A stretch of 55,023 nucleotides of DNA from Gammaproteobacteria bacterium (GTDB lineage: Bacteria; Pseudomonadota; Gammaproteobacteria; Steroidobacterales; PWYM01). Below the pieces are notes generated by a model, which saw only the letters and a list, made by a program, of their open reading frames with translations, had not been told where the DNA came from and did no database searches. The position numbers and the translations under genes are program-made. Below are positions 9,396-45,872 of this stretch, in pieces (position 1 is the first letter of the stretch; the number at the start of each line of letters is the position of its first letter). The stretch covers positions 1 through 55,023 of the forward strand of contig JBGTIC010000438.1 of NCBI GenBank assembly GCA_041745895.1. The letters are read 5' to 3'.

Positions 9396-10322
9396 CTAGC
9401 GACCCTCCTTGCCAACGGGTTTGCGGTTTTCCATGTAAACCGTGAACGAAGAATCGTTCGGAGAACCCCAACTTTCTGGGGACGGAGCCGTTAAAAACTC
9501 GGGGTAGTTTCTCGTCATATAGTCCAGAAGCTGCGGCGGTAGATTGGAAGCACGCCCGGTTTTCTGCATGAAGGTTCTATAGAGCAAATGCCCCTCGCTC
9601 TGTCCCATCAACATCCATGGCAACCAGGGACCAATCCGCAGCCAGGTACCGGTAAAGTCCGCCTGCGGCTCATCCGGGTCCGCCAATTGTGAGTAGCGCG
9701 CCGCTCGGTTGAACATCTCACTGGTCCTGTTTATACGGCCGGCACTTTCACGTGGCCATTCTTCCGGCGTCATGGGATTGGGGAAAGCGGCATGCAGCTC
9801 AAGCACGCTGAAGGCAGTGTCTTGCTGAATAAGCCATGGGGGCGCGAACGGAGTCTCAACAATGGTTCCGTCAAAGTCCTGCCTCCGGATCGGTGCAACT
9901 TCTGCAGTCACCGTGCGATTCAGAATAGGCAGCACGTGAACTGTTTCCTGATTCAGCGGATTGAACCAATGATCCAGATAGGCGCCTGTCTTCAAGTCCT
10001 TATATACCGCAAACTCGCGATTGAACATCCGGTATACATCACCGGACATCTGCTGAACTCGGTTGATGCCACACCCTTCCACACCAATCAGCGGCTCGAC
10101 CTTTTTCTGGTCTCCGATGACAGCGTAGATCGTGCCACCAAACCAACCGGTAGTTTCAACGGACGGATCCAGGTTTCCCACCAACTTGATGTAGGCTTTC
10201 AGGTTCTCAGCGGGATTGCTGAAATCGATCAGCGCCTCGCCGTGATCGTCTTTAGCCAGACGGCCTGCTGCACCGGCAGAGGCAATCGAGGAAGCACCGA
10301 TCAGGTTATTCAATAGCAGCAT
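9396..10322 (-). CDS. D1: exported protein of the 14-member DUF1838-like family (function unknown)
   Basis: Motifs NLKAYIKLVGNLD, YKDLKTGAYLDHWFNPLNQETVHV, WLPWMLMGQSEGHLLY. Its stop codon directly abuts the amine oxidase start (9395/9396). Hydrophobic N-terminus without RR. Confidence 0.8.
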   Translation of the reverse strand: MLLLNNLIGASSIASAGAAGRLAKDDHGEALIDFSNPAENLKAYIKLVGNLDPSVETTGWFGGTIYAVIGDQKKVEPLIGVEGCGINRVQQMSGDVYRMFNREFAVYKDLKTGAYLDHWFNPLNQETVHVLPILNRTVTAEVAPIRRQDFDGTIVETPFAPPWLIQQDTAFSVLELHAAFPNPMTPEEWPRESAGRINRTSEMFNRAARYSQLADPDEPQADFTGTWLRIGPWLPWMLMGQSEGHLLYRTFMQKTGRASNLPPQLLDYMTRNYPEFLTAPSPESWGSPNDSSFTVYMENRKPVGKEGR

Positions 10323-10329
10323 TCGACCC

Positions 10330-12186
10330 TCACAATTCCTCGGCCTGGGTATTGTTCATGACTGACAGCACAACGTTGGCAAGGTGTTCGGCAAGCCGAG
10401 GATCATCATTCATGGGCACCCAGAGACTCCATGTGCCGGTATATTGATCCTGGACCGGGGAATCGTTGTCGGGCGGTCCAAGCGCTGGGTCGTATCCCAG
10501 GTGCCCGAAGGGTGGCACATCGAAGACTATTTCCGGATCGAGCCTGCTGAGTGCCTGTCCCACCGGCGTCTGGCGAGTCTCGGGGTATCCATTGCCATCC
10601 GTGCAGCCCCCTAACTTGTAGCAACAGTCGTGGCTGACCCCTTGAGCACGCGCTGAGGGGCTTTTGTAGCAGATTCGTTGCGAATCAGGTGGCCAATGAT
10701 GCGCAAACGGACTGTCGTAGCCAGGCCAAAGAAGCACATCGAGATCAGACACGGGTACGAACCCCCGAAAGCCGATTTCCTGCGCGACCTGATTCGGCAG
10801 GCCCACCTGCCCCACTGTGGTTGTCACAATCACCTGCGGAAACACAACCACGATGTGCTTGACGCCGTTGTCCTTGAGCCGCTCGAGCGCCTCCCAGTAG
10901 CGCAGGCCCCACTTGCCCGGGGGCATCTGTGCATCTGAGCCGTAAAGATAAGCATGGCCCAGGTCTTCGCCGCGCATCTCCCGGGTACGCTGAAGCTTGC
11001 CATCGACCATCTGCTTGATGCCCTCCCAGGCACCCACGATATTGTCGGCTGACAGGGTCGGATGGCGGGTCAACAGGGCTTCCTGCAGATTTTCGTGAAG
11101 CGTTAGGGTGTCATCGATCTTGGGGTCAAATACTTCGTTACCTGGGAAAATGCCATGATTGTAGAGAAGCACACCCGTGTCAGCGGGTGATACGCTGGCG
11201 GACATGGCGCGCACAATTCCGTCGACCACAATTGATGCATACGCCGGATCATCGGTAACGGGATTACCGCGATTCTCAAGCACTACCTCTGGCGCATTAC
11301 GCGGCGCGCCCATCGATGCCGTCCAGTCGGCCGGCTCCTTGGGGTATGCCTCCATCATGAAGCCGGTGTAGTCGTTGGCCCAGACGATTGGAACCGAGCG
11401 GTTCGTGTCGCGCAGCGCGGCATCTCTGGCCCTGCCCAGCATTTTGTATACGTCAAGACTCTTCGAGAAACGGATCCCGCCCACGGCGGTATCGACGATG
11501 ACTATTTTTTCAACACCGGCTCGCAGCAGCCGATCCATTGGTCCGTCGACGTTGTAGCGCTCCGGGTCGCACAGCGGCCAGCGCCCGTCTGGCTGGGCTC
11601 CACCGTCTGTTGAACCACCGCAGTAACGCATGGCGATCTCAGACGCTCCATCCTGGTTGTAGATGAATCGAGGGTAAGGCAGCGACCCCACATCAGCAGA
11701 TCCAGCAATCCAGCCGACCCAATCCACGACAAACTGGGTATTCGTAGAGGTTGCCGCCCCATCCAATGCGGCTTGCAAGGAAACCACCTGGGCCTCTGTG
11801 ACTTGCGTGACCGGCTCCAGATCACCAATCCGCCCCAGCTGGAAGCTGTACTTGCGGGTTAGCCCGAGGAGTTCTGAGGCCTGCTCAGTGTTGTGGAGGG
11901 GTAGCACGCTGGGCCAGTTCTCCGGCTGCCAGATGATATTCTGATATACGTAGGAGTTGGGATCATAGGATGCCATCTGAATACCGGCATCAAAGAAATT
12001 TGAGAAATTCAGCGACCTTGCGCCACCGTGAACCAGATACAGAACCCCGATCTTTTGTGTATCACCGTTACTCTCAGCCAGGCCCTCCGAAGGAGAGAAT
12101 AGTTGTGCCGAAAAAAGTAACGCCAACAGCACGGCATAAGCGCGACAAGTCGCAATGACCCGGCTGGATCTGTCAAGGAATTGCAT
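10330..12186 (-). CDS. Exported 618-aa protein of unknown function (ferrochelatase/CbiX-like motif pattern; Cys-rich C-part)
   Basis: Signal-like N-terminus. VLYLVHGG, IAMRYCGG...LLRAGVEKIVIVDTAVGG, LLYNHGIFPG, WGLRYWEALERLKDNGVKHIVVVFPQVIVTTT. Five Cys in CYKSPSARAQGVSHDCCYKLGGC. Close paralog of 14097-15956. Confidence 0.75.
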   Translation of the reverse strand: MQFLDRSSRVIATCRAYAVLLALLFSAQLFSPSEGLAESNGDTQKIGVLYLVHGGARSLNFSNFFDAGIQMASYDPNSYVYQNIIWQPENWPSVLPLHNTEQASELLGLTRKYSFQLGRIGDLEPVTQVTEAQVVSLQAALDGAATSTNTQFVVDWVGWIAGSADVGSLPYPRFIYNQDGASEIAMRYCGGSTDGGAQPDGRWPLCDPERYNVDGPMDRLLRAGVEKIVIVDTAVGGIRFSKSLDVYKMLGRARDAALRDTNRSVPIVWANDYTGFMMEAYPKEPADWTASMGAPRNAPEVVLENRGNPVTDDPAYASIVVDGIVRAMSASVSPADTGVLLYNHGIFPGNEVFDPKIDDTLTLHENLQEALLTRHPTLSADNIVGAWEGIKQMVDGKLQRTREMRGEDLGHAYLYGSDAQMPPGKWGLRYWEALERLKDNGVKHIVVVFPQVIVTTTVGQVGLPNQVAQEIGFRGFVPVSDLDVLLWPGYDSPFAHHWPPDSQRICYKSPSARAQGVSHDCCYKLGGCTDGNGYPETRQTPVGQALSRLDPEIVFDVPPFGHLGYDPALGPPDNDSPVQDQYTGTWSLWVPMNDDPRLAEHLANVVLSVMNNTQAEEL

Positions 12187-12267
12187 GCTGTTGAAGCTCC
12201 ATCCAATACAAGTTCGCGAGTATCACTTAATCCACATCAACGGAGTCCATCTACCAAGTCTGACGCG

Positions 12268-13203
12268 CTAGCGACTCTTTACTCCGACCGGCTTCCTGTT
12301 TTCCATGTAAACCGTGAACGACGAATCGTTCGGAGAACCCCAGCTTTCTGGGGACGGAGCCGATAAAAACTCGGGGTAGTTTCTCGTCATATAGTTCAGA
12401 AGCTGCGGTGGTAGATTGGAAGCACTGCCGGTTTTCTGCATGAAGGTTCTATAGAGCAGATGCCCCTGGCTTTGCCCCATCAACATCCATGGCAACCAGG
12501 GACCCACCCGCACCCAGGTACCGGTGTGGTCAGCCTGCGGTTGATCGGGATCGGCTAACTGTGCGTAGCTAGCTGCTCGGTTAAACATCTCACTGGTTCT
12601 ATTGATGCGACCGGCACTTTCACGCGGCCATTCTTCCGGCGTCATGGGATTGGGAAAAGCGGCGTGCAGCTCAAGCACGCTGAAGACAGTGTCTTGCTGA
12701 ACAAGCCATGGGGGCGTGAACGGAGTCTCCACCATGGTCCCATCAAAGTCCTGCCTCATGATCGGTGCAACTTCTGCATTCACCGTCCGATTCATGATAG
12801 GAAACACATCGACTGTTTCCTGGTTCAAGGGATTGACCCAATGATCCAGATAGGCGCCCGTCGCCAGGTCCTTATACACGGCAAACTCGCGATTGAAGAT
12901 CCGGTATACACCATCACCTACCTGCTGTGTTCGATTGACGCCACAGCCCTCCACACCAATCAGCGGCTCGACCTTTTTCTGATCTCCAATGACAGCGTAG
13001 ATCGTGCCACCAAACCAACCGGCTACTTCAACGGACGGATCGAGACTTCCCATCAACTTGACGAAAGCTTTCAGGTTTTCGGAGGGATTGCTGAAGTCGA
13101 TCAGCCCGTTGGCTCTATTGTGTTCTGCCAGACCTTTGGCGCCGGTTGCCGTAGCAGCAGAGGCAATCATCGAAGCACCGATCAAGTTGTTCAGCAGCAG
13201 CAT
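12268..13203 (-). CDS. D2: DUF1838-like family protein, near-duplicate of D1
   Basis: Collinear with D1 along its whole length (YKDLATGAYLDHWVNPLNQETVDV, WLPWMLMGQSQGHLLY). The DNA is also highly similar to D1. Confidence 0.8.
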   Translation of the reverse strand: MLLLNNLIGASMIASAATATGAKGLAEHNRANGLIDFSNPSENLKAFVKLMGSLDPSVEVAGWFGGTIYAVIGDQKKVEPLIGVEGCGVNRTQQVGDGVYRIFNREFAVYKDLATGAYLDHWVNPLNQETVDVFPIMNRTVNAEVAPIMRQDFDGTMVETPFTPPWLVQQDTVFSVLELHAAFPNPMTPEEWPRESAGRINRTSEMFNRAASYAQLADPDQPQADHTGTWVRVGPWLPWMLMGQSQGHLLYRTFMQKTGSASNLPPQLLNYMTRNYPEFLSAPSPESWGSPNDSSFTVYMENRKPVGVKSR

Positions 13204-13207
13204 TCGA

Positions 13208-14083
13208 CTAAACCTCCGCGTCGGTAAAGCTGTCTACATTCAGATGGTCTGGATACTCTGCCTCGATGCGCTTCCGGTAGGGGTGCGGAAGATCCTCTAC
13301 AGACGCAAGCTTCGCCCCCGAGGCGTGCCAAACCAGGTGACCGGGCCGATCGCCCATATCCAGCCAGTCTGACCAAGGCGCAAAGAAAGACACGGTAAAC
13401 GCAGCCGGCAGACGCCTTCGATTCTTGTCAGCAAAATGATCTGTTCTGACAATCTGCGTCTGTCTCTGCTTGCGCGGTTGCTGGAGTCCGGGAGGATAGA
13501 CGGTCTCGTTGTGCAGCCATACGAAACCTCCGGCCTCCGTCCACCAAAGATCCAGCGGCGCATCTGGAATCTGGTCGGCAACCCACCGCGGCCGAACACC
13601 ACTGGTCTGATAGAGAAACCCGCGGTCGCCGCTTATCTGGCTCAAGGCCGGCACCTCAACAGTCTTTCCTGTGAGCGGGTTTTCCATTTCGTGCAACCAT
13701 TCGCCGGTCGCGATATCCGTGAAAAACGTGACGGTCGCGCCCTTCATGAGGAAGCCACCGGAACGCAGGCGCCTCATCTTGTATATCTCCATACCTTGCA
13801 GCCGCATCAACTCCAGGGGCGCTGCACCGTCGGTAACCGCATAGATAGATCCGTTGTAGAACCACGGCGTATCCTCCGGATCGAGACTGGCCGTAATTCG
13901 AACGAGGTTCTCCAGGTTCTCCTCCGGTGTGACGGGCAAGGCAAGACCGTCGACGCGAGGAGCATTTGCCGTAGACGCCACCGCGCCGAAGACCGGCAGG
14001 AATCCCAAGCCTGCGGCACCCGCACCCCCGAGCGCTGTGCGCCTGCTGATACGCGCGTCGGGCGTTTTACTTGAGTTCGTCAT
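13208..14083 (-). CDS. D3: Tat-exported DUF1838-like family protein
   Basis: Leader ISRRTALGGAGAAGLG. FTDIATGEWLHEMENPLTGKTVEV. WSDWLDMGDRPGHLVWHASG. ATG at 14083, just after the upstream stop at 14097. Confidence 0.8.
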   Translation of the reverse strand: MTNSSKTPDARISRRTALGGAGAAGLGFLPVFGAVASTANAPRVDGLALPVTPEENLENLVRITASLDPEDTPWFYNGSIYAVTDGAAPLELMRLQGMEIYKMRRLRSGGFLMKGATVTFFTDIATGEWLHEMENPLTGKTVEVPALSQISGDRGFLYQTSGVRPRWVADQIPDAPLDLWWTEAGGFVWLHNETVYPPGLQQPRKQRQTQIVRTDHFADKNRRRLPAAFTVSFFAPWSDWLDMGDRPGHLVWHASGAKLASVEDLPHPYRKRIEAEYPDHLNVDSFTDAEV

Positions 14084-14096
14084 AAGAGCGTCTTCC

Positions 14097-15956
14097 TCAC
14101 AATTCCTGGGCCTGGGCATTGTTCATGACTGCCAGCACGACGTTGGCAAGGTGTTCGGCAAGCCGGGGATCATCGTTCATGGGCACCCAGATACTCCATG
14201 TACCGGTATATTGATTCTGGACCGGGGCATCGTTGTCGGGCGGTCCAAGCGCTGGGTCGTATCCCAGGTGGCCGAACGGTGGCACATCGAAGACTATTTC
14301 CGGATCCAGCCTGCTGAGTGCCTGTCCTACCGGCGTTTGGCGAGTCTCGGGGTATCCATTGCCATCAGCGCATCCCCCTAACTTGTAGCAACAGTCGTGG
14401 CTGACCCCTTGCGCACGCGCTGAGGGGCTTTCGTAGCAGACTCGGTCCGAATCAGGCGGCCAGTGATGCGCAAACGGACTATCGTAGCCAGGCCACAGCA
14501 GAACATCGAGATCTGACACGGGTACGAACCCGCGAAAGCCGATTTCCTGCGCTATCTGATTCGGCAGGGTCACCTGCCCCCCTGTGGATGTAACAATCAC
14601 CTGCGGAAACACGACCACGATGTGCTGGACGCCGCTGTCCTTGAGGCGCTCGAGCGCCTCCCAGTAGCGCAAGCCCCACTTGCCCGGGGGCATCTGAGCA
14701 TCTGACCCGTAAAGGTAAGCATGCCCCAGGTCTTCGCCGCGCATCTCCCGGGTACGCTGAAGCTTGCCATCGACCATCTGCCTGATCCCCTCCCAGGCGC
14801 CTACGATATTGTCTGCGGACATGGTCGGATGGAGGGTCAACAGGGCTTCCTGCAAATTTTCGTGAACCGTTATGGTGTCATCGATCTTGGGGTCAAATAC
14901 TTCGTTACCAGAATAGATTCCATGATTGTAAAGAAGCACACCAGTGTCAGCGGGCGATACGCTGGCGGACATGGCGCGCACAATTCCGTCGACCACGATT
15001 GACGCATACGCTGGATCATCGGTCACCGGATTACCGCGGTTCTCAAGCGCTACCTTTGGCGCACTGGGCGGCGCGCCCATCGACGCCGTCCAGCCGGCCG
15101 GCTCCTTGGGGTATGCCTCCATCATGAAGCCGGTGTAGTCGTTGGCCCAAACGATCGGCACCGAGCGGTTCGTGTCGCGCAGCGCGGCATCTCTGGCCCT
15201 GCCCAGCATTTTGTATACATCAAGACTTTTAGAAAAGCGGATACCGCCCACGGCGGTATCGACGACAATTATCCTGTCAACGCCCGCTTGCAGAAGACGA
15301 TCCACTGGTCCGTCCACGTTATAGCGCTCCGGGTCACACAGCGGCCAGCGCCCGTCTGGCTGAGCGCCACCGTCTGTTGAACTGCCGCAGTAACGCATGG
15401 CAATCTCGGACTCGCCATCCTGGTTGTAGATGAAGCGAGGGTAAGGCAGCGACCCCACATCAGATGATCCGGTAATCCAGGCCACCCAATCCACGACAAA
15501 CTGCGTATTCGTAGTGGCTGCCGCCCGATCCAATGCGGCTTGCAGGGAAACCACCTGAGCCTCAGTGACTTGCGTGACCGGCTCAATACTGCCTGCTCGT
15601 CCCAGCTTGAAGATGGACTTGCGGAGCAAGCCAAGAAATTCTGAGGCCTGCCGACCGGCACTGAGCGGCACTACGCGATGCCAGTTCTCCGGCTGCCATA
15701 TAGTATTTTTATATCCCGCGGAGTTCTCATCATAGGATGCCATCTGTATACCGGCATCGAAGAAATTGGAGTAGTTGATCGATCTGTGGCCACCGTGAAC
15801 CAGGTACAGGACTCCAACTTTTTGTGAGTTACTACTTTCGTCCGCAAGAACCTGAGGCGGAGAAAGCAGTTGCGCCGAAAGCAGCAATACCGCAAGCAAA
15901 ACATGAAAGCGGTAGGACACAATGACGACCAGGTGTTTCCTGTATAGAGATGACAT
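14097..15956 (-). CDS. Exported ~619-aa protein, paralog of 10330-12186
   Basis: Same motif series as the 618-aa protein, and the C-terminal ~500 nt are nearly identical at DNA level. ATG at 15956 (MSSLYRKHLVV...); the ORF-track start at 15992 is TTG. Confidence 0.75.
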   Translation of the reverse strand: MSSLYRKHLVVIVSYRFHVLLAVLLLSAQLLSPPQVLADESSNSQKVGVLYLVHGGHRSINYSNFFDAGIQMASYDENSAGYKNTIWQPENWHRVVPLSAGRQASEFLGLLRKSIFKLGRAGSIEPVTQVTEAQVVSLQAALDRAAATTNTQFVVDWVAWITGSSDVGSLPYPRFIYNQDGESEIAMRYCGSSTDGGAQPDGRWPLCDPERYNVDGPVDRLLQAGVDRIIVVDTAVGGIRFSKSLDVYKMLGRARDAALRDTNRSVPIVWANDYTGFMMEAYPKEPAGWTASMGAPPSAPKVALENRGNPVTDDPAYASIVVDGIVRAMSASVSPADTGVLLYNHGIYSGNEVFDPKIDDTITVHENLQEALLTLHPTMSADNIVGAWEGIRQMVDGKLQRTREMRGEDLGHAYLYGSDAQMPPGKWGLRYWEALERLKDSGVQHIVVVFPQVIVTSTGGQVTLPNQIAQEIGFRGFVPVSDLDVLLWPGYDSPFAHHWPPDSDRVCYESPSARAQGVSHDCCYKLGGCADGNGYPETRQTPVGQALSRLDPEIVFDVPPFGHLGYDPALGPPDNDAPVQNQYTGTWSIWVPMNDDPRLAEHLANVVLAVMNNAQAQEL

Positions 15957-16209
15957 ACCCTCAACGCTCCGCCGAGTGGCCGTTTTGCTCAATTGGCCTA
16001 TCTAAATTAACAATTTACAGATCTGACATAGCACCCCCATGTGAGCATAGGATTTCCGCCAAGACTAATGAGTACCAGATGGCGCCCCATCACTTCTATG
16101 CATATTGCACTCAGCGCATGAACGGCCCTTTTTTTGAAGCTCCACGATCGACTAGGCCAGGGTTGCCCAGCCCGAAGAAACTGGCGGCCAATATTATCGG
16201 CAACAGGTG

Positions 16210-17133: not shown

Positions 17134-17409
17134 CGAGCAAGTATAACCCGTCCTCATAGCCGCTAACGCACAATTCAGTGTTCTTTTCGCAACTCAACCC
17201 GCACTATCCTGCCATGACCCCGTCGGACACAATTTTCATACCGATCCAACCGCGCCAAGGGGAGGCGAACTCCATACCTGCTTTTCCGGCGCTTGCGAGG
17301 CTCTACTGCCGATTGCCGGGTTTGCTGGGCGCGCAGCGTTCTGGAACGCCCAGGCGCCAAGGCTATGAAGCATCAATCGATGTGAAGTCATTCCACTCGA
17401 GGACTTGTT

Positions 17410-18924: not shown

Positions 18925-18955
18925 TGAACGAAAGTCCTTCAATGGGGGGCATCAG

Positions 18956-22738: not shown

Positions 22739-22778
22739 TTCTCTCACAGGCAACTATCTGCACTTTCTGGAGGCATCA

Positions 22779-27003: not shown

Positions 27004-27018
27004 ATGCGCAATGCGCAT
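27004..27018. promoter_or_regulatory. Perfect 7-1-7 palindrome ATGCGCA-A-TGCGCAT between the TBDR and LytTR genes
   Basis: Read directly. Candidate operator only. It overlaps the first ATG of the LytTR ORF. Confidence 0.3.
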
Positions 27019-28096: not shown

Positions 28097-28170
28097 CTCG
28101 CACGCATTGTCGTGAACCTTGACCGCCGCCGGTTGGCTCGCGGGCACGATCTCGTTATTCGAGTCTACGA

Positions 28171-37711: not shown

Positions 37712-38611
37712 ATGAAGACATCAATTTCTCGCCGCCACATGCTAGGCGGGCTGGCGCTTGCCAGTTTCGGCGTGGGCCGACTGGCTCACGGTGCGGTAGA
37801 CGCAGTGCGCGCTCCAGCGACTGTCTACTTCGATTCACCCGGAAGCGTGATGACTGCGCTGGTCAAGATGCGTGGCCACCTCGAGGGAAAGCCGACTTTC
37901 ATCTGGCTGCGCGGCGTACAGTACACGCTTATCGATGGCGAGGCGGTGCCGATGTGTGGCTACCTCGGGGGTGCCATCACGCGCTACCGGCGTCTCGGCG
38001 ACGACACGTTCGAGTTCGTGATGTACGAGATCTCCTATTACACCGATCTGGAGACCGGCAAACAGCTGGAAACCGTTCGCATGCCCGTGACGGGGCGCGA
38101 GGTCGCCGTACCTCTTTACCGCACCGGGCCTGGCCAGCACGTCATCATGATGGAGAACGAGGAGGAGCTCTACTGGAGCAAGGAGCTTACGACCAGTGCG
38201 GAGGTGGCGCGACAGCTGGCACCTGATGCCAGGATCCATTACAGGTTCAATGTCCGCCAGCCCGATGTATTCAGGGACAGCGCATGGATCCGCAACGACT
38301 CTTTCACGCGGATGATCCCTGATGATCCGGATCAGCCGGGGTTGTTCTACAAGGAAGCCATCACCTACCAGGCCAGCCTGGCCCAGCTGGCGGATCCCGA
38401 CGCGCCGCAGGTGGATACCTCGATGTCGTTTGCGATTGCCACCGCATGGCGTCCCTGGATGCAGATGCAGGGCATCAACGGGCATACGATGACTGACGGG
38501 GTCGGGGGCAAGGTATTCGATATTCACGACATGCCCGATGACTTCGTGGCTTTGACGGCCCAGCTCCATCCGGATGTGCTGGAAAATCCCGTGGCGCTGT
38601 TGGGGGACTGA
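37712..38611 (+). CDS. D9: Tat-exported DUF1838-like family protein (tandem paralog of D8)
   Basis: RBS GAGG then ATG 37712. MKTSISRRHMLGGLALA. YTDLETGKQLETVRMPVTGREVAV. WRPWMQMQGINGHTMTDGVGG. Confidence 0.8.
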   Translation: MKTSISRRHMLGGLALASFGVGRLAHGAVDAVRAPATVYFDSPGSVMTALVKMRGHLEGKPTFIWLRGVQYTLIDGEAVPMCGYLGGAITRYRRLGDDTFEFVMYEISYYTDLETGKQLETVRMPVTGREVAVPLYRTGPGQHVIMMENEEELYWSKELTTSAEVARQLAPDARIHYRFNVRQPDVFRDSAWIRNDSFTRMIPDDPDQPGLFYKEAITYQASLAQLADPDAPQVDTSMSFAIATAWRPWMQMQGINGHTMTDGVGGKVFDIHDMPDDFVALTAQLHPDVLENPVALLGD

Positions 38612-38647: not shown

Positions 38648-39475
38648 CTATTCCCAGGAGTCCGGGCTCGCCGTCAGCAAGCCCCCATGCTCTGCCTCCG
38701 CCCGGCGCCGGTACTCCGCGGGAAGCTGGTCGATAGAGTCGAGCTTGCGGCCTGAGGAATGCCACACCAAGTGGCCGGGAGTGTCAGCCATATCCATCCA
38801 ACCCTGCCACGGCGACAGGTAGGTCGAAGAGAACACTGACGGAACGTTCGCCACTTCCGGATCCAGAAATCGGTCTACGGGACAGAACACCGTCATGCTC
38901 TCGAGCCATGGTTGAGGCTGCTCTGACAAATAGCGACTGGAGACAAGCCAGACGCTGTCGCCTGACCGATACCATTCGATCTCCCACGGAGTCAGCGCGG
39001 ACTCAGCATCTAATTCCTCACCATAGCCCCAGCCCCTCGCGGCATACAGTGTGGTATCGCGACCGCCCAGCTGGTTTGGTCGTACAGTGTTCATGTTCGT
39101 GGTGTAGGGATTGCGATACTCCCTGAGCATTTCTCCAGTCTCGCGATCGCGGAAGAATGTCAGAGTGCGACTGCTGACCAGGAATGACCCATCCGCGAGC
39201 GGTGTCGACCAGTAGACTTCGGTACCTTCGAGATTGAAAAGATGTTTCGGCGCCTCGTTACCCACCTGGCCATATATGCGGCCTGTATACCACCAGAGTA
39301 CGTCTTCCGGCCTCACACTCATTCTCATCCTGATGTTGGCCCGGAACTGCTCTTCGGCTGTCCGAGGCATCCATGTATCAGCGGATGAGGGTGTCATGGC
39401 GGCGCGCGCCCGCATGCCCCCGCTCAGTCCGAGGGCGCTGATGCCCCCCACCAACAAGCGCCTGGAAATTTGCAT
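38648..39475 (-). CDS. D10: Tat-exported DUF1838-like family protein
   Basis: MQISRRLLVGGISALG. FRDRETGEMLREYRNPYTTNMNTV. WQGWMDMADTPGHLVWHSSG. Confidence 0.8.
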   Translation of the reverse strand: MQISRRLLVGGISALGLSGGMRARAAMTPSSADTWMPRTAEEQFRANIRMRMSVRPEDVLWWYTGRIYGQVGNEAPKHLFNLEGTEVYWSTPLADGSFLVSSRTLTFFRDRETGEMLREYRNPYTTNMNTVRPNQLGGRDTTLYAARGWGYGEELDAESALTPWEIEWYRSGDSVWLVSSRYLSEQPQPWLESMTVFCPVDRFLDPEVANVPSVFSSTYLSPWQGWMDMADTPGHLVWHSSGRKLDSIDQLPAEYRRRAEAEHGGLLTASPDSWE

Positions 39476-39502
39476 GTTCTATCTTGCTCCTGCGTTTTTG
39501 TT

Positions 39503-40939
39503 TCAAAGCATACTCGAGACGTCGATGACGGCACGTTCAGCTGATTCCAGCGCGCCCTCCATGCCGCGCTGGGTCGTGGCTGTATGTTCGCCACAGAAAT
39601 GAATGCGGCCGTGTGGCTCAGTCACGTGCGGCAGTAACCCGTGCACCTGACCCGGCCCGTAGATTGCCCAGTCGCCGGCCGCGAAAGGATCCAGCCACCA
39701 GGAATGAAACCCGCCGAATTCCAGCGCTCCCCGTGCCGCAGGACGTAAGCGCTCTATCTCTGCAATGACGGCACGCCCAGCGGCTTCACCGCCTAACCGG
39801 TCGAGGTAATCTGCACTCCAACCCCGAGCGTTCACCACGATTCCTGTGACCTCTGTGGGGTCTGCGCCAAACCTCTGCGCCGCGACTGACCCACATATGC
39901 CATCAGTCCACATGGAAGGGGAAAGTCCATCCTTTTCCCAGTAGGCCTTGCGAGGCACGAGAAACACCAGGCTGTATCGCATGTATTGCAGGCCTTGCAC
40001 CAGGCGACGCTGCGGACCCTGCAGGCGGGGCACCAGACTCACGTCGCGTAACTTCGACGCCGGCAAAGAGCAAATGATCTGCCTGGCTTCCAGCGAGTCA
40101 CCGTTTCGCCTAAAGACGCGAACTCCATCGGCGTGCTGCTCGATAGCGGCCACCTCGAAATCCAGCAAGATCTCGCCGCTCAGCGCTGCAGCCATTTTTT
40201 GCGGCAACTTCTCGTTGCCCCCGGCAACCGCGTAAGCAGCGCTGCCAACACTGACCTGCTCTGCCATCCACCGATCGTTGAACAGATACATCAGCGCCGA
40301 CACCCCCGCGGAGGAATCCCCGAAATAGGGATTGATGTCGTAACCTAGACTGATCTCGCCATCACTCAGTCCCCGCGAGAGGAGATACTGGTCTAACGGG
40401 CGATCAAGACCGCGGTGTTCGGCTGCGAGCCAATCGCTGGATACCTTCAGCGGGTTAGTTCCGGCAAGCCGACTCGCCAGCACTTGCCAGGGAAGCAGTT
40501 CTCTATACGCAGATGGCAACGGATTGAGAGGGCTGTCCGGCCATTGGCCGGCAGGGATCAGTTGCCCCGCCATGACCATCTCGGGTTGTGCCCCCGAGTA
40601 CATTCGTGGCGCGTAGTTGACCAAAGGAAGCTCTAGCCTCTTGGCCAGATCAATCACCCGCGCATAGCCCGACGCGATAGTGTTGCCGCCAACTTCCGGG
40701 TGGCCAGGCAGGTCGAATCGTGTGCGCAGGCGTCCGCCGACACGATCCCGCGCCTCCACGACCTGGACTTGAGCACCCATTTCTTCGAGAAGAAGTGCTG
40801 CGTAAAGACCCGACAGACCAGCACCGAGAACGATGACGTCGAGCTTGCGCGCAGTCGCGGGTCCCGCCATCGGACTCAATCCTGGGTGCAGAAGCCCTGT
40901 TCCCAGCAATCCTGCCACCACTTCACGTCTTGAAACCAT
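39503..40939 (-). CDS. Tat-exported flavin-containing amine oxidase family protein (paralog of 7947-9395)
   Basis: MVSRREVVAGLLGTGLL. VIVLGAGLSGLYAALLLEEMGAQVQVVEARDRVGGR. HFCGEHTATTQRGMEGALES. ATG at 40939; the ORF-track start at 40957 is TTG. Confidence 0.8.
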   Translation of the reverse strand: MVSRREVVAGLLGTGLLHPGLSPMAGPATARKLDVIVLGAGLSGLYAALLLEEMGAQVQVVEARDRVGGRLRTRFDLPGHPEVGGNTIASGYARVIDLAKRLELPLVNYAPRMYSGAQPEMVMAGQLIPAGQWPDSPLNPLPSAYRELLPWQVLASRLAGTNPLKVSSDWLAAEHRGLDRPLDQYLLSRGLSDGEISLGYDINPYFGDSSAGVSALMYLFNDRWMAEQVSVGSAAYAVAGGNEKLPQKMAAALSGEILLDFEVAAIEQHADGVRVFRRNGDSLEARQIICSLPASKLRDVSLVPRLQGPQRRLVQGLQYMRYSLVFLVPRKAYWEKDGLSPSMWTDGICGSVAAQRFGADPTEVTGIVVNARGWSADYLDRLGGEAAGRAVIAEIERLRPAARGALEFGGFHSWWLDPFAAGDWAIYGPGQVHGLLPHVTEPHGRIHFCGEHTATTQRGMEGALESAERAVIDVSSML

Positions 40940-40975
40940 TTTCGTGTCCGGGGTCAAGTACGTGATGCGCGTGCA

Positions 40976-41845
40976 TCAGGCATTATCGAGCACGGCGTAT
41001 GGATCCTTTGAAGCCTCAGGGAAAGTCTGTTCAAACAGGATACGCCACAATTCTGGCATCCCCTCGTACGCAAATACTTTCCTTCCAAAACAATAGGAAT
41101 AGAAGCTGCCGGGCTGATCGCCCATCTGGAGCCATGCCGGCCACGTGAGTATGTCGGTGAAGTACTGAGCACTCGGCGCATTCATTACACGCGGATCAGC
41201 GACGTCAGCTACCGTGCCGACGTACGTCGACCAGTCGGAGGCTACGAAGGGCCGTGCGTCCGGGCCCGCTTCGGTGGGTACTGCCCGGATCATCATATCG
41301 CCTCGGATGACCACATCATCGCCCTCGATATATCCCGGGCCTTTGTCCGTTACGAGGTCTGTCGTCGTCATGCCAGGCATGCTCACACCAAACGGTGAAC
41401 CGCCTTCTGGTCCCATGACTGTTCGCCACGCTCTGGGCGTGTTGTACGGGACGGATACGTTGGCTCCAGTGTACGGATTTCGAAAGACCTCGAGCAGTTG
41501 CATCGAGTCGGGTGGTGTATAGAAATTCGCACTCGCAACCGTCACCTCATAGGAATCATCGTCCAGATCCCGAGTGCGAAACCACGCGCCGACATACATA
41601 TCCCAGAATGGTGTTGCAACGGAGTCGACGACACCATGGCGTCTTCCTCTCATCCACCAGAACGTGACTGCATCGTCCAGCGAATATGCCAGCTTGCGGT
41701 AGGCGCGCAGGACCTGCTGCCTGTCGCTCATGTCCGGTGGCGCCCACGTGTGCTCTGCGGCCTGAGTCGCACGCGGCGCGTTGCCCATCGCCAGCAAACC
41801 TGCAGCAGCGCCCATCATGCCAAGCGCGGATCTTCTACGGATCAT
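40976..41845 (-). CDS. D11: Tat-exported DUF1838-like family protein
   Basis: Strong RBS GGAGGAG before ATG 41845. MIRRRSALGMMGAAAGLL. EVFRNPYTGANVSV. WPAWLQMGDQPGSFYS (His replaced by Ser). Confidence 0.8.
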   Translation of the reverse strand: MIRRRSALGMMGAAAGLLAMGNAPRATQAAEHTWAPPDMSDRQQVLRAYRKLAYSLDDAVTFWWMRGRRHGVVDSVATPFWDMYVGAWFRTRDLDDDSYEVTVASANFYTPPDSMQLLEVFRNPYTGANVSVPYNTPRAWRTVMGPEGGSPFGVSMPGMTTTDLVTDKGPGYIEGDDVVIRGDMMIRAVPTEAGPDARPFVASDWSTYVGTVADVADPRVMNAPSAQYFTDILTWPAWLQMGDQPGSFYSYCFGRKVFAYEGMPELWRILFEQTFPEASKDPYAVLDNA

Positions 41846-41887
41846 GACATCTCCTCCCACAGTACCTCATTGCTGAAATCGTATGAC

Positions 41888-43048
41888 CTACCAATTGCGC
41901 CGTTCAGCGAAATGGCGCGATGCATCAGAGAAATCTGTCGGGACGTAATCCGCCTGCAGATTGGGGCCATGGCGAGGCACGTAGCCACTGTAGACCGGTA
42001 GCAGCATCTCGATCGGAATGCCGGGCGGCAACGTCCGCGAACGCCGGAACTCGGCGACCGGAATCGTCGTCGTAACGAACTCTTCTTCGACAGAGCGCGC
42101 TTGGGCTGCGATGCTCCCGCTCGGGGCGAAGATCGCCGTATCTCCGGACCCGGAGAATGCCGGGAACCCTGGCTGTTCCGGTGAGACCGACTGATTGCAG
42201 ACGACAGTCCACAATCTGTTGTGCTGAGAAATGACTTTCGCCTCGTCGAGGTTATAACCACCTGAGGAGGAGCTGAGGCGAAGCTCGAGCCCCTTGATGG
42301 CCAAGGCCCGAATCACGTCCGGCTGGCCAGGGGTGATCGAACACGAAATGTTTCCGATGTCGGTTCTGGCCAGGGGCAGGACCGCATCTTCGCCATACAT
42401 TTCGCGATAGCGATCGAGCACATCGTAGATTGATGTCGTGTACAGGTCCCAATTCGGACGGAACCCGCGCCCATTGTTGGTTTTCCAATGATTTGCGACG
42501 ACCTTGCCCTCTGGCGAGATGAGAACACCGTTGAGCAGCAGGTGCCCAGGCCAGTCAATGTCGCGGGCATAGGTCCCGAACGTGATGTAGCAACCATGCT
42601 CCATGGCTTTTTTGCCGAGGGCATCGGTTTCCGGCCCTGGGACTTCTATCGCAACGCGTAACGCTTCCTGCAACGACCACGGGTTCCAACCCATGATGGG
42701 TTGTTCGTGAAAGCACACGAGATCCTGCGGACCGGGAAAACCGTTAGCCATATCGATCAGTTCGAGCACGTGATCAAGATTGGCTTTCATCTCCGGGTCG
42801 GGGTTACGTGTATTCCGGATCGCACGAATTTGCGATTGCACCGCGGTGACGCGTAGCGCATCTTTTCGCAACGGCATGACAGCGTAATTACCGTTGCCGG
42901 CGATCCTGAGGTCCGCAGTCGCAGTGCTTTCTTGTGCCTCAAGGGCGATGCCGCCGCTTAAGACTGCACCGGCAGCGCCGAGACCCCCCGTTGCCAGAAT
43001 CTGTCGCCGACTGATCGACCCGATGGGCTTATCGGTGTTCCTTTTCAT
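41888..43048 (-). CDS. Tat-exported carbon-nitrogen hydrolase (nitrilase superfamily) candidate
   Basis: Leader ISRRQILATGGLGAAGAV. Spacing of the Glu-Lys-Cys triad candidates: LRVTAVQ...DLVCFHE, ...ANHWKTN..., ...TDIGNISCSITPGQPDVIRALAIKG. RBS GAGGTG before the ATG. Confidence 0.55.
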   Translation of the reverse strand: MKRNTDKPIGSISRRQILATGGLGAAGAVLSGGIALEAQESTATADLRIAGNGNYAVMPLRKDALRVTAVQSQIRAIRNTRNPDPEMKANLDHVLELIDMANGFPGPQDLVCFHEQPIMGWNPWSLQEALRVAIEVPGPETDALGKKAMEHGCYITFGTYARDIDWPGHLLLNGVLISPEGKVVANHWKTNNGRGFRPNWDLYTTSIYDVLDRYREMYGEDAVLPLARTDIGNISCSITPGQPDVIRALAIKGLELRLSSSSGGYNLDEAKVISQHNRLWTVVCNQSVSPEQPGFPAFSGSGDTAIFAPSGSIAAQARSVEEEFVTTTIPVAEFRRSRTLPPGIPIEMLLPVYSGYVPRHGPNLQADYVPTDFSDASRHFAERRNW

Positions 43049-43066
43049 TAATCACCTCTCGTAAAG

Positions 43067-43921
43067 TCAGCCCGGATGAAGATCGGGGATGGCTTGATCG
43101 AAGAGGCTGCGATCGACGCGCAGCAGTTTCGGGAATTCCCGCTCCGCACGTTCGCGAAATTCGACGGGCAACTCGTCGGTAGAGCGAAGCTTGCAGCCAC
43201 TCCAGGCGGCAAACATGTGGCCGGGCGAATCGCCCATCTCCATCCACTGTGGCCAGGGAAATACGTACGCGCCGGATACTTCAGCGGGTAGCCAGTTCCG
43301 CGTCCGGTCGTCGAATGCGGCCGCCGGGGTTGCTTCCGTGCCCATCTCGAGAAAGGTTACAGGCCAGGTGTCGGGCGGCACACGAATCGCGTCGACCTTC
43401 ACGTAGCCATTCTCTCGGCGCAGAACTTTGTAGTCGGGCCGCGGCGGCTGTGTGCGCCGATCCAGACTGATGACGCCTGCAGGGGATCGCACAATGCCCG
43501 GATCTTCGATCAGCGCCATTGGAGGCACGGTCACCATGGCACCCGTCACAGGGTTCAGTACCTCGCTGACGAAGCGTCCGGAGTCAAGGTCGCGAGGGAA
43601 AGACAGGTTATGACCGTGAATGCGGTAGCGATTCTCGCCGATGCGTTGATGCCGTGAGAACTCGATGCCCTCCCACCTGACGACGGCCTTGGGTGTGGCG
43701 TTCCCCGGCACGGCCACCATGATGAAGTGGTACCAATGCAGAATATCGTCGGCATCCTCGAGACTGCGCTGTATGCGCATTGACTGCCGAAAGCGTTCGA
43801 CCGGATCCAGGGCAAGGAACTCAGAGATCCCGGTGACAGGTGCGGCCGTCGCCACCGAACTTACGCCAGTCAGTCCAGGGGCGGCGAGTATCATCGCGCC
43901 GAGCGCTTCGCGTCGCTTCAT
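43067..43921 (-). CDS. D12: exported DUF1838-like family protein (triplet subfamily)
   Basis: MKRREALGAMILAAPG. YRIHGHNLSFPRDLDSGRFVSEVLNPVTGAMVTV. WPQWMEMGDSPGHMFAAWSG. Confidence 0.8.
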   Translation of the reverse strand: MKRREALGAMILAAPGLTGVSSVATAAPVTGISEFLALDPVERFRQSMRIQRSLEDADDILHWYHFIMVAVPGNATPKAVVRWEGIEFSRHQRIGENRYRIHGHNLSFPRDLDSGRFVSEVLNPVTGAMVTVPPMALIEDPGIVRSPAGVISLDRRTQPPRPDYKVLRRENGYVKVDAIRVPPDTWPVTFLEMGTEATPAAAFDDRTRNWLPAEVSGAYVFPWPQWMEMGDSPGHMFAAWSGCKLRSTDELPVEFRERAEREFPKLLRVDRSLFDQAIPDLHPG

Positions 43922-43945
43922 GACTGCACCTCTGGCTTATGGGGA

Positions 43946-44854
43946 TCAGAGTGGGAAGGCAATGGGGCGCTCGAACTCCTCCCACCTGGGTTGCAGCAAC
44001 TCAGGATAGAGACGCTCGGTGTGTTCCAGAAAATCTCTGGGAATCTCGGCGGCATTGTGGAGTTTTCGACCATCGAAGAATCCGAGCATGTGCCCGGGAC
44101 GATCGCCCATTTCCAGCCACGGCAGATACGGGAATACGTAGCTGCCTGCGAAATGCACCGGCAGGGATGTAATGGTCGGATTCTCGAAATACCTGAGATC
44201 CGTCCACTGGCAGGAGTTCTCCATGTGGGTGCTTGGCCAGTCCGGTGGTGCAGTGCGTACGCTATCGAGCTTCAACAGATTGTCTTCGATTCTGAATCTG
44301 CGATAGGGCTGGACGTATTGTCCGCTTCCCGAGAGGTTTCGAAACCCCTTAGGCGAAGCCAGGGTGCCGGGATCATGCAGCAACACCGTGGGCATGGCCT
44401 TGACGGTTTTCCCGGTGAGCGGGTTATCGATGGTTTCGAGGAACTCGCCGGTGTGAATGTCACGCACGTAGGAGAGGTTGTGGGCATGAATCCGGTACTC
44501 CATGTCCGCTACCCGCCGGAAGTAGCTGTACTCAATACCCTCGTAAGCCATGAGCGGGAAGGGGGTGCGATCGGCCGGGATGACGTAGGCGATCCAGTGG
44601 TACCAGGTCAGGGTGCTGCCCTCCTCCTCGACCAGATCGCGTTCCAGACGAAGGTGCTGGCGAAACTCCTCGACGGGATCTTCGAAGAAAATAAACTCTG
44701 ACCGCACCTGGCTCAACGCCATGTCCTCGGCCCGGGTGCCGGCGGGAATCCGCACACCCGGACTGTGGTTGCGGCTGGGTGCGGCCCCGGCCCCAGGGGC
44801 TATCGCCAGGGCGGATAATGCCGCGTTACTGGCGAGGAAACGACGTCGATTCAT
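43946..44854 (-). CDS. D13: Tat-exported DUF1838-like family protein (triplet subfamily)
   Basis: MNRRRFLASNAALSALA. YRIHAHNLSYVRDIHTGEFLETIDNPLTGKTVKA. LPWLEMGDRPGHMLGFFDG. Confidence 0.8.
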   Translation of the reverse strand: MNRRRFLASNAALSALAIAPGAGAAPSRNHSPGVRIPAGTRAEDMALSQVRSEFIFFEDPVEEFRQHLRLERDLVEEEGSTLTWYHWIAYVIPADRTPFPLMAYEGIEYSYFRRVADMEYRIHAHNLSYVRDIHTGEFLETIDNPLTGKTVKAMPTVLLHDPGTLASPKGFRNLSGSGQYVQPYRRFRIEDNLLKLDSVRTAPPDWPSTHMENSCQWTDLRYFENPTITSLPVHFAGSYVFPYLPWLEMGDRPGHMLGFFDGRKLHNAAEIPRDFLEHTERLYPELLQPRWEEFERPIAFPL

Positions 44855-44882
44855 ATCTCATTTCACCAGATGAAGGCTTGCT

Positions 44883-45872
44883 TCAGCCGCGCAGCGCCTC
44901 CTGCGCCACCGCTGACAGGGGTGTTTCGAGTTCTGCCCAGCGAGGACGCAGCAATTCAGGCACTTCGCGGGCGACCCGATCATGGAACTGGCGTGGAAGT
45001 TCGGCCGGTCCGCCCATGACCCTGCGACCACTCCACGCGCCCAGCATGTGGCCCGGCCGCTCCCCCATGCGCATCCACGCCGGAAAGGGAAATACGTAGA
45101 ACCCGGATGTCTGGAACGGCAGCGCAGTCACCGCCGGGTTGTAGAAGTCGTCGCGCGACACCGTGCTGCAGCCGCTTTCGATGAACATTTCGGGCCAGCC
45201 TTCGGGCATTGGCCTGATGTGCTCGGACTTGATGAGTGGTCCTTCTATACGAAGAACGTGATAAGAGTCCAGCCATTTCGGGCTCGTCGCATCCAGCACC
45301 AGATACCCCTTGGGACCGTGAAGCACGCCGGGATCATTGAGCAGCCTGATAGGCTCGACCCGAAGCTCTTCATTGGTATAGGGATTGTGCGCGCTGGAGG
45401 TGAACTCGCCGGTGATCAGATCACGCGGGTAGCTGACGTTATGTGCGTGGATGCGCCAGGTCATCTCCCCGACGCGCCGAAAATACGAAAACTCCATGCC
45501 TTCCCAGCGGACAATCGGCTGCGGGCGCTGACCGGGAGACAGCGCATACATCAGAAACTGGTAGGTCGACAGCGCAGTGCCTTCGTCTTGGAGGTCGCGC
45601 TCCAGCCTGAAAAGCGCCTTGAACTTCTCGACCGGGTCGGTCAAGCGGATGAATCCATCATCCCACGGCGTGGATTCCGCTGCCGCGGATGCATTCAGGC
45701 TGACTGGGAGCATGCCAAGGCCGACCAGGGCCAGCGGCGCACCTCCCAACAGCTGCCGACGTCGGCTGTCGATGCAATCCGGTGCACTACCCTCTGGCGC
45801 TCCGCGTGTCTCTGGCGCTCCGCTCGACTCGGCCAGGTTGCGAACAAGGGCCTGGCGCAGGGTATTGATCAT
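44883..45872 (-). CDS. D14: Tat-exported DUF1838-like family protein (triplet subfamily)
   Basis: DSRRRQLLGGAPLALVG. WRIHAHNVSYPRDLITGEFTSSAHNPYTNEELRV. FPAWMRMGERPGHMLGAWSG. Confidence 0.8.
   Translation of the reverse strand: MINTLRQALVRNLAESSGAPETRGAPEGSAPDCIDSRRRQLLGGAPLALVGLGMLPVSLNASAAAESTPWDDGFIRLTDPVEKFKALFRLERDLQDEGTALSTYQFLMYALSPGQRPQPIVRWEGMEFSYFRRVGEMTWRIHAHNVSYPRDLITGEFTSSAHNPYTNEELRVEPIRLLNDPGVLHGPKGYLVLDATSPKWLDSYHVLRIEGPLIKSEHIRPMPEGWPEMFIESGCSTVSRDDFYNPAVTALPFQTSGFYVFPFPAWMRMGERPGHMLGAWSGRRVMGGPAELPRQFHDRVAREVPELLRPRWAELETPLSAVAQEALRG

Follow-up and report, generated by a model that had tools for sequence, protein, structure and literature searches.

Utilisation loci centred on a TonB-dependent receptor (TBDR) are represented by the polysaccharide utilisation loci (PULs) of Bacteroidota and, in Proteobacteria, by TBDR loci that serve the use of carbohydrates or of aromatics derived from lignin. 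Among exported proteins, 'hitchhiker' pairs of the twin-arginine translocation (Tat) pathway are known from the small and large subunits of hydrogenases and from tyrosinase, for which MelC1 acts as a 'caddie' with the Tat signal. The locus compared here with these systems lies on contig JBGTIC010000438.1 of the gammaproteobacterial assembly GCA_041745895.1 (Steroidobacterales, PWYM01). The whole analysed stretch of 55,023 nucleotides is called the window below, and its interval 9396-45872 holds 14 genes of the DUF1838 family (PF08894) among genes of TBDRs, exported enzymes and a regulator. The DUF1838 family is already catalogued in Pfam and similar islands are common in metagenomes. Unlike known TBDR utilisation loci, however, this island draws half of its genes from one uncharacterised family of predicted barrel proteins. 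Thirteen deeply diverged DUF1838 lineages stand side by side in the window, each beside a different exported enzyme, and the region is best explained as a conserved island of several operons for periplasmic processing in an uncultured proteobacterium.

DUF1838 genes of the island

The original prediction, made from the letters and a list of open reading frames (ORFs), had described 14 packed paralogs of one protein family and had proposed DUF1838 as its name; both statements were confirmed. All 14 ORFs (D1-D14) translate at the coordinates given there with zero internal stops, and the Pfam hidden Markov model (HMM) of PF08894 matches every one of them with scores between 40.1 and 153.6 bits, the gathering cutoff being 25 bits (Table 1). 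A profile of 60 family members, run against the six-frame ORFs of the window of at least 80 aa, returned precisely these 14 proteins and none besides, with scores of 209-446 bits. The proteins are collinear end to end over one domain of about 230 residues and share invariant P, W, M, G and P columns. Within the interval, the family makes up 14 of the 27 genes and 34% of the bases. Among 1.84 billion representative proteins, the family profile finds no more than 1,882 clusters (50% identity), and for so rare a family such clustering is far beyond chance.

The 14 genes belong to four tight operons, as judged by Pfam and NCBIfam scans and by intergenic distances, and in every operon they interleave with single enzyme genes. 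Operon 1 (-) has the order X2-D3-D2-X1-D1-AO1-abh1-FAD_binding_2, where X1 and X2 are large exported proteins, AO denotes flavin amine oxidases and abh alpha/beta hydrolases. Operon 2 (-) is D6-abh2-D5-D4, with intergenic gaps of -1, -8 and 7 nt, and adjoins the divergent genes of the LytTR regulator and TBDR1. Operon 3 (+) consists of D7-TBDR2-beta-lactamase-family hydrolase-D8-D9 and operon 4 (-) of D14-D13-D12-CN_hydrolase-D11-AO2-D10. As AO1, AO2, the FAD_binding_2 protein and the CN_hydrolase start with a twin-arginine (RR) motif and the alpha/beta hydrolases, X1 and X2 have Sec-type signals, the whole set appears to act outside the cytoplasm.

The view that the family lacks an assigned function agrees with Pfam, NCBIfam, the PDB and the searchable literature, none of which gives one. 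In that literature DUF1838, PF08894 and IPR014990 have only incidental mentions, in tables of Streptomyces gene clusters (ArtU, ket16). Since the DUF1838 genes of those clusters are peripheral and unassigned, a link to piperazate (KtzT-type) chemistry was dropped. Homologs bear solely the public names 'DUF1838 family protein' or 'hypothetical', and a search for cultured carriers among the cluster members turned up only metagenome-assembled genomes (MAGs) and metagenomes. A Pfam scan of the 60 family members with E-values up to 10 returned no second related family or clan.

Age of the paralogs

The pairwise identity of the paralogs is 17-42%, with the sole exception of D1 and D2 (85%). Nine of them (D2, D3, D4, D5, D6, D10, D11, D12 and D14) have one-to-one orthologs with 61-91% identity on related contigs, where the gene order is the same. 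Contig L086 carries X-D3-D2-AO-hydrolase-TBDR-parE-parC, contig L081 carries D6-hydrolase-D5-D4 / LytTR / TBDR, and contig L082 has seven DUF1838 genes in 17 kb, along with the CN_hydrolase. The order DUF1838-abh-DUF1838-DUF1838 is kept in both L081 and L082, and DUF1838-CN_hydrolase-DUF1838-DUF1838 is kept in L082. The array is composed of 13 ancient paralog lineages and one recent duplicate. Paralogs that differ so widely, with orthologs so much closer and in the same order, constitute an old, conserved and specialised set and therefore neither an amplification nor a passenger. The claim that the family is not a passenger was thus borne out by its one-to-one conservation on related contigs, and its integration into operons with TBDRs and exported enzymes was likewise confirmed.

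The recent duplicate results from a tandem duplication at 9396-15992 of a unit X-(D3)-D, of which L086 has the unduplicated form. The DNA repeats are 71-94% identical (88% for 9396-9695 and 12268-12567) and are spaced by 3767 nt for X1/X2 and by 2872 nt for D1/D2. Upstream of their start codons, D1 and D2 share a conserved junction of 62 nt, but D3 is gone from the second copy.

The G+C content is 0.55-0.59 over operon 1 and its neighbours (8000-20000) and 0.61-0.67 in most other parts of the window, so that this segment could have a different history. The same arrangement beside parE/parC in L086 argues against a very recent acquisition.

Gene neighbourhoods in other genomes

Two subfamilies were compared with the same HMMs and the same method, using 80 genome loci of the D2-type (all from MAGs, +/-10 kb) and 27 metagenome loci of the D4-type with a length of at least 8 kb. 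A TBDR is present in 22/27 D4-type loci but in only 5/80 D2-type loci, and a LytTR gene in 12/27 and 2/80, respectively. An alpha/beta hydrolase of the type found here occurs in 13/27 D4-type and 14/80 D2-type loci, and the AO profile detected an amine-oxidase-like gene in 0/27 and 5/80. The D4-type loci have 1-6 DUF1838 copies (mean 2.8 per 10 kb), the D2-type loci 1-4 when at least 8 kb long (mean 0.99 per 10 kb), and the window has 3.8 copies per 10 kb. Multi-copy islands were found in 25 of the 27 D4-type loci. On the distant contig L085, the order is LytTR / TBDR-DUF1838-DUF1838-hydrolase with overlapping stop and start codons, and the divergent LytTR/TBDR arrangement is kept there as well as in L081 and L082. 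The commonest D2-type neighbours are FAD_binding_4 proteins (14 loci, no signal peptide), cytochrome c, SDR, S10 peptidase and Rieske/VanA_C proteins.

Dense DUF1838 islands with a TBDR thus form a module that recurs in the environment, and the window is a long example of it: a TBDR, a LytTR gene, an alpha/beta hydrolase and several DUF1838 genes recur together on dozens of environmental contigs. The originally proposed linkage to TBDRs and exported oxidases holds for the operons of the window and, as regards TBDRs, for the D4-type, but it fails for the D2-type. Linkage of the whole family to TBDRs or to amine oxidases was rejected on the D2-type counts, and the FAD_binding_4 neighbours of these loci lack signal peptides. 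TBDR linkage is a property of particular DUF1838 subfamilies, and the contrast between the linked D4-type and the unlinked D2-type offers built-in controls.

Export signals, pairing and fusion

Signals of the twin-arginine type had been noted in 12 of the 14 proteins, and these 12 have an RR motif within their first 40 residues, followed by an uncharged or hydrophobic stretch; the judgement is by motif only. For D3-D9 and D11, the starts chosen in the original prediction give proteins shorter than those of the longest ORF; these starts put RR near the N-terminus and are plausible. Pfam TAT_signal gave weak matches in 4/60 family members. In the PDB, a sequence search with D2 and with the 60-member profile found no relative, and the N-terminus of the profile aligned only to the Tat signals of unrelated entries, with non-significant E-values of 0.2-8.

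The motif is absent from D1 and D2. These two proteins and their closest orthologs (P0003, P0005) begin with MLLLN(N/S)L..., and most D2-type homologs carry RR. The start of D2 lies 4 nt past the stop of the RR-bearing D3, and the loss of RR suggests either possible co-export with D3 ('hitchhiking') or a different localisation.

In the window the genes D3/D2, D5/D4, D8/D9 and D12/D13/D14 are adjacent, with gaps of 4-28 nt. Likewise, 25 of the 56 D2-type genome loci with enough flank have a D3-like DUF1838 gene immediately upstream on the same strand. Moreover, six of the best 150 family representatives are two-domain DUF1838 proteins of 480-600 aa. Taken together, the gene order and the fused proteins suggest cooperation between two different DUF1838 domains. 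The fused proteins (P0279, P0318, P0332, P0336, P0352 and P0372) have a long D2-like domain followed in tandem by a shorter one; five of the six are Lys/Asn-rich with Sec-like signals, a composition unlike that of the proteobacterial members.

Predicted fold and conserved residues

The AlphaFold2 model of D2, based on a 60-sequence alignment, has a mean predicted local distance difference test score (pLDDT) of 89.8 and a predicted template modelling (TM) score of 0.84. It is nearly all beta and comprises about twelve long beta-strands, besides two helices at the N-terminus and a short helical part at the C-terminus. Foldseek found no match with TM above 0.3 for this model in the PDB or in BFVD, the viral models adding nothing. 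Its best matches were PsbO chains (E 3e-4 to 4e-3, probability up to 0.99, TM 0.24-0.30), and the further, weak neighbours (TM 0.2-0.3, root-mean-square deviation 8-14 A) were nitrobindin, the Riemerella haemophore 8xjc, LolA-like proteins and membrane barrels; these neighbours include no enzyme family that shares an active site. The structural check proposed originally thus yielded a confident barrel model but no close solved relative, and DUF1838 can be read as a predicted soluble beta-barrel of a type not yet solved.

The PsbO lead itself was not supported, as hhalign gave a probability of 0.09% against a manually entered PsbO sequence and there was no match to Pfam MSP with E up to 10. Membership of the PsbO/MSP family is contradicted by this lack of sequence or profile similarity and by TM values of 0.24-0.30, where more than 0.5 is needed. 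PsbO, nitrobindin, the haemophore and the LolA-like proteins belong to barrels, exported or soluble, whose role is to bind a ligand or to cap a partner, and the likeness of DUF1838 to them is one of resemblance, not of membership.

The four shared motifs of the original prediction are real, and residue frequencies were computed for them over 149 diverse family members. In the core hairpin (D-x-x-T-G-E ... N-P-x-T-G), D112 is conserved in 94%, N124 in 95% and P125 in 98%; in the C-proximal block (W-x-x-W-M-x-M-G-x-x-P-G), the values are 83% for W236, 93% for W239, 93% for M242 and 96% for G247. The residues conserved in more than 80% of the family are mostly Gly, Pro, Trp and Met, with D112 and N124 in the hairpin turns. 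The histidine of the PGH motif (His248) is kept in 10/14 copies of the window; across the family, only 34% of the representatives have it. No Cys or His is conserved family-wide among the 149 members. The suggestion of a metal- or His-dependent enzyme is therefore not sustained, and the idea that Tat export implies a cofactor is backed by no conserved cofactor ligand.

Partner X

X1 and X2 have no sequence match in Pfam, NCBIfam or the PDB, including the Ferrochelatase and CbiX/CbiK models of Pfam, and an X profile run against the PDB matched no chelatase, so the link to these enzymes is by fold only. The AlphaFold2 model of X is confident, with a pLDDT of 82.4. Its top 44 Foldseek matches in the PDB are all ferrochelatases (E 7e-9 to 5e-6, target TM 0.5-0.66), followed by the periplasmic CbiK, and on this model X1 and X2 are predicted to have the two-lobed class II chelatase fold. 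The family has more than 360 'hypothetical' homologs, and its alignment contains invariant His and Cys, H53 and H344 being invariant in 40 homologs. The motifs VHGG and NHG presumably sit where chelatases carry His, according to a positional comparison made by eye.

Genes of this family recur near DUF1838 on the distant contigs L086, L087, L088 and L091. On the last three, their company comprises Rieske/VanA_C oxygenases, CN_hydrolase, alpha/beta hydrolases and a 405-aa methyltransferase like that at 22779-24011, in addition to DUF1838. Two other X contexts are without DUF1838, and only 2/80 D2-type loci have X within 10 kb. The predicted fold of X is the sole chemical hint in the locus and points weakly to a metal chelate or macrocycle. 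As a second uncharacterised component, this family is worth following.

Proposed function and alternatives

We tentatively prefer the reading that DUF1838 proteins are periplasmic ligand-handling barrels, often hetero-paired, which serve the co-encoded hydrolases and oxidases. The proteins would be exported folded via Tat as soluble beta-barrels, with D1 and D2, which have lost RR, possibly riding out with D3. They would act largely as hetero-pairs, encoded by adjacent genes or, elsewhere, as fused domains. As non-catalytic or auxiliary subunits they may take up small, probably poorly soluble molecules imported by the TBDRs, or intermediates of these, and the bound molecule would be held for, or presented to, the hydrolase or oxidase encoded alongside. 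Each paralog or pair might be specialised for one substrate, intermediate or enzyme partner.

Several observations weigh against this proposal. The structural likenesses of the D2 model are weak, Tat targeting is judged from motifs, and the formation of heterodimers is suggested by gene order and fusions only. D2-type members elsewhere are mostly without a nearby TBDR and stand among cytoplasmic oxygenases, and therefore a TBDR-coupled role is not the universal function of the family. Furthermore, charged residues on neighbouring strands are semi-conserved (R91 in 62%, E106 in 70%, E205 in 63% and K257 in 78%) and could form a catalytic or polar site, and most window copies do retain the PGH histidine.

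The last two points also speak for a possible, though in our opinion doubtful, alternative in which the DUF1838 proteins are themselves enzymes, namely cofactor-independent or loosely metal-dependent barrel catalysts (isomerases, lyases, cyclases or hydrolases). The many paralogs would then share out the catalysis in a periplasmic pathway that also includes the hydrolases and oxidases, either one step after another or substrate by substrate. The D2-type subfamily (21 sequences, 50-85% identity) has many invariant polar residues, including E59, R91, N104-E106, E178, H180, E195, S196, R232, Y251 and R252; the paralogs are conserved one-to-one, as pathway enzymes are, and the neighbours in other genomes (FAD_binding_4, Rieske/VanA_C, SDR, S10) are catabolic. 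However, the only polar residues conserved across the family, D112 and N124, both belong to turn motifs, His248 is too rarely kept, and the family resembles no enzyme family by sequence or fold. Moreover, the DUF1838 genes outnumber the recognisable enzymes, and it is binding or structural modules, more than enzymes, that typically occur as pairs and fusions.

It is unlikely that the island serves the acquisition of a metal or metallophore and not carbon catabolism. In such a system the TBDRs would import a siderophore-like or tetrapyrrole-like chelate, the DUF1838 barrels would bind it in the fashion of siderocalins or haemophores, the esterases, amidase and amine oxidases would dismantle the ligand and the chelatase-fold X would handle the metal. 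The predicted ferrochelatase fold of X1 and X2, the recurrence of X near DUF1838 and the weak matches of the D2 model to nitrobindin and a haemophore are in line with this. A block with a HupE/UreJ metal permease gene borders the island both in the window and in L081, both TBDRs best match a siderophore-receptor subfamily, though below its NCBIfam cutoff, and a periplasmic esterase beside a siderophore TBDR is a known design (PfeA/PfeE). On the other hand, AO1 resembles MAO/putrescine oxidase and not protoporphyrinogen oxidase, X has no chelatase match at the sequence level and the metal-ligand role of its residues is putative, and X is rare near D2-type loci. A Fur-box search across the window gave no convincing site, the best one (13/19) lying outside the TBDR promoters. 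The LysR and aldehyde dehydrogenase genes and the fusion of a Baeyer-Villiger monooxygenase (BVMO), an esterase and a hydroxylase, all present in the locus, are typical of carbon catabolism.

A wider reading, to which we would give an equally small chance, goes further. The DUF1838 pairs would be an unrecognised class of periplasmic small-molecule carriers and, with X, the Tat-exported amine oxidases, the esterases and the amidase, would form an undescribed periplasmic pathway that dismantles a TBDR-imported metallated or macrocyclic natural product, for instance a metallophore or a compound derived from a tetrapyrrole or corrinoid. The carriers of this pathway would be uncultured Proteobacteria that are widespread in freshwater and marine habitats.

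We consider it improbable that DUF1838 proteins are escorts for export and assembly, or structural subunits, which, much like MelC1 or the hydrogenase small subunits, bind a partner protein in the cytoplasm and carry or stabilise it across Tat and in the periplasm. Such a role would suit the absence of RR from D1, D2 and their closest orthologs beside an RR-bearing D3, the tight translational coupling of adjacent genes and the fact that PsbO, the protein they resemble, caps another protein. Nevertheless, most D2-type homologs elsewhere retain their own RR, hitchhiking explains only D1 and D2 while the other 12 copies carry their own signal, and the neighbouring flavoenzymes and amidase, with RR, and the hydrolases, with Sec signals, therefore need no carrier.

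Finally, a recent redundant amplification or passenger expansion without an organised role is rejected as highly improbable, for although one X-D segment is truly a recent tandem duplication, all other pairs are diverged, nine paralogs have orthologs in the same order and comparable multi-copy islands occur in nearly all D4-type metagenome loci.

Gene inventory and other features

The features of the four operons and of the regulator are listed in Table 1.

Table 1. DUF1838 genes and their neighbours in the window; bits refer to PF08894 for D1-D14 and to the model named for other genes.
Feature	Position	Strand	Description	Score	Relatives
FAD_binding_2 flavoprotein	5385..6920	(-)	RR signal; ends operon 1; N-terminus ISKREFLGLAGAAAT	PF00890 179.9 bits	
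abh1	6933..7892	(-)	alpha/beta hydrolase, Sec-type signal	Abhydrolase_1 90 bits	
AO1	7947..9395	(-)	flavin amine oxidase, RR signal; directly downstream of D1; N-terminus SANRRSVLKALGAAG	PF01593 196.9 bits	
D1	9396..10322	(-)	DUF1838, D2-type, no RR; recent duplicate of D2	148.6 bits	85% identical to D2
X1	10330..12186	(-)	exported 618-aa protein, predicted ferrochelatase (class II chelatase) fold	no Pfam family	
D2	12268..13203	(-)	DUF1838, D2-type, no RR	153.6 bits	ortholog 83% in L086
D3	13208..14083	(-)	DUF1838, RR; upstream partner of D2	80.5 bits	ortholog 82% in L086
X2	14097..15992	(-)	631 aa; tandem duplicate of X1		86% identical to X1 over 609 aa
TBDR1	24496..26865	(-)	TonB-dependent receptor; Plug + TonB_dep_Rec_b-barrel; divergent from LytTR regulator		
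LytTR regulator	27011..28096	(+)	membrane-anchored; LytTR at residues 264-354	LytTR 39.3 bits	
D4	28171..29109	(-)	DUF1838, RR; pairs with D5	116.9 bits	orthologs 88-91% in L081/L082, 41% in L085
D5	29117..30019	(-)	DUF1838, RR; pairs with D4	53.3 bits	orthologs 75-79% in L081/L082
abh2	30012..30941	(-)	alpha/beta hydrolase, Sec-type signal; between D6 and D5	Abhydrolase_1 80.6 bits	
D6	30941..31807	(-)	DUF1838, RR; heads operon D6-abh2-D5-D4	62.0 bits	ortholog 83% in L081
D7	32061..32864	(+)	DUF1838, RR; upstream of TBDR2	64.6 bits	
TBDR2	33047..35398	(+)	TonB-dependent receptor; Plug + TonB_dep_Rec_b-barrel		
serine hydrolase	35438..36667	(+)	beta-lactamase family	PF00144 94.9 bits	
D8	36727..37701	(+)	DUF1838, RR at residue 28; pairs with D9	43.5 bits	35% identical to D9
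D9	37712..38611	(+)	DUF1838, RR; pairs with D8	53.1 bits	
D10	38648..39475	(-)	DUF1838, RR; ends operon D14..D10	86.8 bits	ortholog 80% in L082
AO2	39503..40957	(-)	flavin amine oxidase, RR signal; between D11 and D10; N-terminus MVSRREVVAGLLG	PF01593 162.9 bits	
D11	40976..41845	(-)	DUF1838, RR; directly upstream of AO2	40.1 bits	ortholog 76% in L082
CN_hydrolase	41888..43048	(-)	nitrilase-superfamily amidase, RR signal; between D12 and D11	PF00795 55.8 bits	
D12	43067..43921	(-)	DUF1838, RR	42.0 bits	ortholog 61% in L082
D13	43946..44854	(-)	DUF1838, RR	47.9 bits	38-42% identical to D12/D14
D14	44883..45872	(-)	DUF1838, RR at residue 37	45.6 bits	ortholog 82% in L082

The closest solved relatives of AO1 are MAO-B, putrescine oxidase and L-amino-acid oxidase. 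A protoporphyrinogen-oxidase-like nature of AO1 and AO2, which would have tied them to the fold of X, was rejected because the nearest solved proteins are of these types. The FAD_binding_2 flavoprotein (flavocytochrome c / KstD-like) has a flavocytochrome c-like NCBIfam match below the cutoff, and the CN_hydrolase weakly matches a formamidase in the PDB. The LytTR regulator has hydrophobic segments at about residues 76-230 and no receiver domain, so its N-terminal half is probably membrane-embedded.

The fusion mentioned above is a single ORF of 1292 aa at 18860-22738 (+) with three enzyme domains. Residues ~33-519 correspond to a Baeyer-Villiger-type flavin monooxygenase, residues 586-887 to a LipP1/hormone-sensitive-lipase-type esterase, which reaches the NCBIfam cutoff, and residues 906-1267 to a 3-hydroxybenzoate-6-monooxygenase-like FAD hydroxylase, and the ORF appears to be a putative three-enzyme fusion. 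It is followed at 22779-24011 (+) by a methyltransferase of ~405-410 aa, in which an N-terminal half of no recognised type precedes a class I S-adenosylmethionine domain. Such methyltransferases recur near DUF1838 or X genes on L001, L025, L071, L087 and L091, and were counted in 8/80 D2-type loci and on two X-family contigs.

The island is bordered at 45934-51211 by an FGE-sulfatase/PvdO-like gene and by a block with genes for DUF3604, a PpiC-type rotamase and a HupE/UreJ protein of the metal permease family. The DUF3604-rotamase-HupE block is syntenic in L081 (17673-20825), and FGE-sulfatase genes also occur near DUF1838 in L082 and L091.

Many long antisense or overlapping ORFs of the window, e.g., 22776-24008 (-) and 27383-28378 (-), have no family matches; the first is a 410-aa mirror of the methyltransferase gene. 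These ORFs are most likely high-GC artefacts and not genes.

Comparison with known systems

With its defined pairs, partner enzymes and importer, the locus makes the function of DUF1838 testable, and its unusual completeness makes it a good place to begin assigning functions to both DUF1838 and the chelatase-fold family X. If the proteins are indeed periplasmic carriers or presenters of molecules imported by TBDRs, they would supply a missing link in the way Proteobacteria handle such substrates between the outer membrane and the periplasmic enzymes. The tandem duplication of D1/D2 and X1/X2, the pairing and fusion of DUF1838 domains and the predicted ferrochelatase-fold partner X are new relative to the original prediction.

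D1-D14 belong to Pfam PF08894, a family without assigned function, structure or dedicated literature. To its description are added a putative Tat-type signal, a predicted barrel fold, the pairing and fusion of domains, the linkage of subfamilies to TBDR, LytTR and hydrolase genes and the dense multi-paralog islands. Compared with the class II chelatases (HemH/CpfC, CbiK), X is about 300 residues longer and has a signal peptide and a Cys-rich C-terminal region. As in the Tat hitchhiker pairs, a protein with RR (D3) is translationally coupled to one without (D2), but, unlike in those pairs, most D2-type homologs elsewhere have their own RR.

Unlike PULs, the island has no SusD-like lipoprotein, glycoside hydrolase or inner-membrane transporter. 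As no SusD-family match was obtained among the window proteins scanned against Pfam, it is not a PUL in the strict sense. It also departs from the TBDR utilisation loci in that its enzymes are esterase/amidase-type hydrolases and flavin oxidases and its regulator is a membrane LytTR protein. A co-conserved set of a TBDR, exported enzymes and a regulator, by which such loci are recognised, is not characteristic of the D2-type loci (TBDR in 5/80) but is present in the window and, as regards the TBDR, at 22/27 D4-type loci. Like the TBDR-centred utilisation loci, therefore, the island encodes a TBDR, a dedicated regulator and exported degradative enzymes together, and this arrangement is conserved in its relatives (L081, L082, L085).

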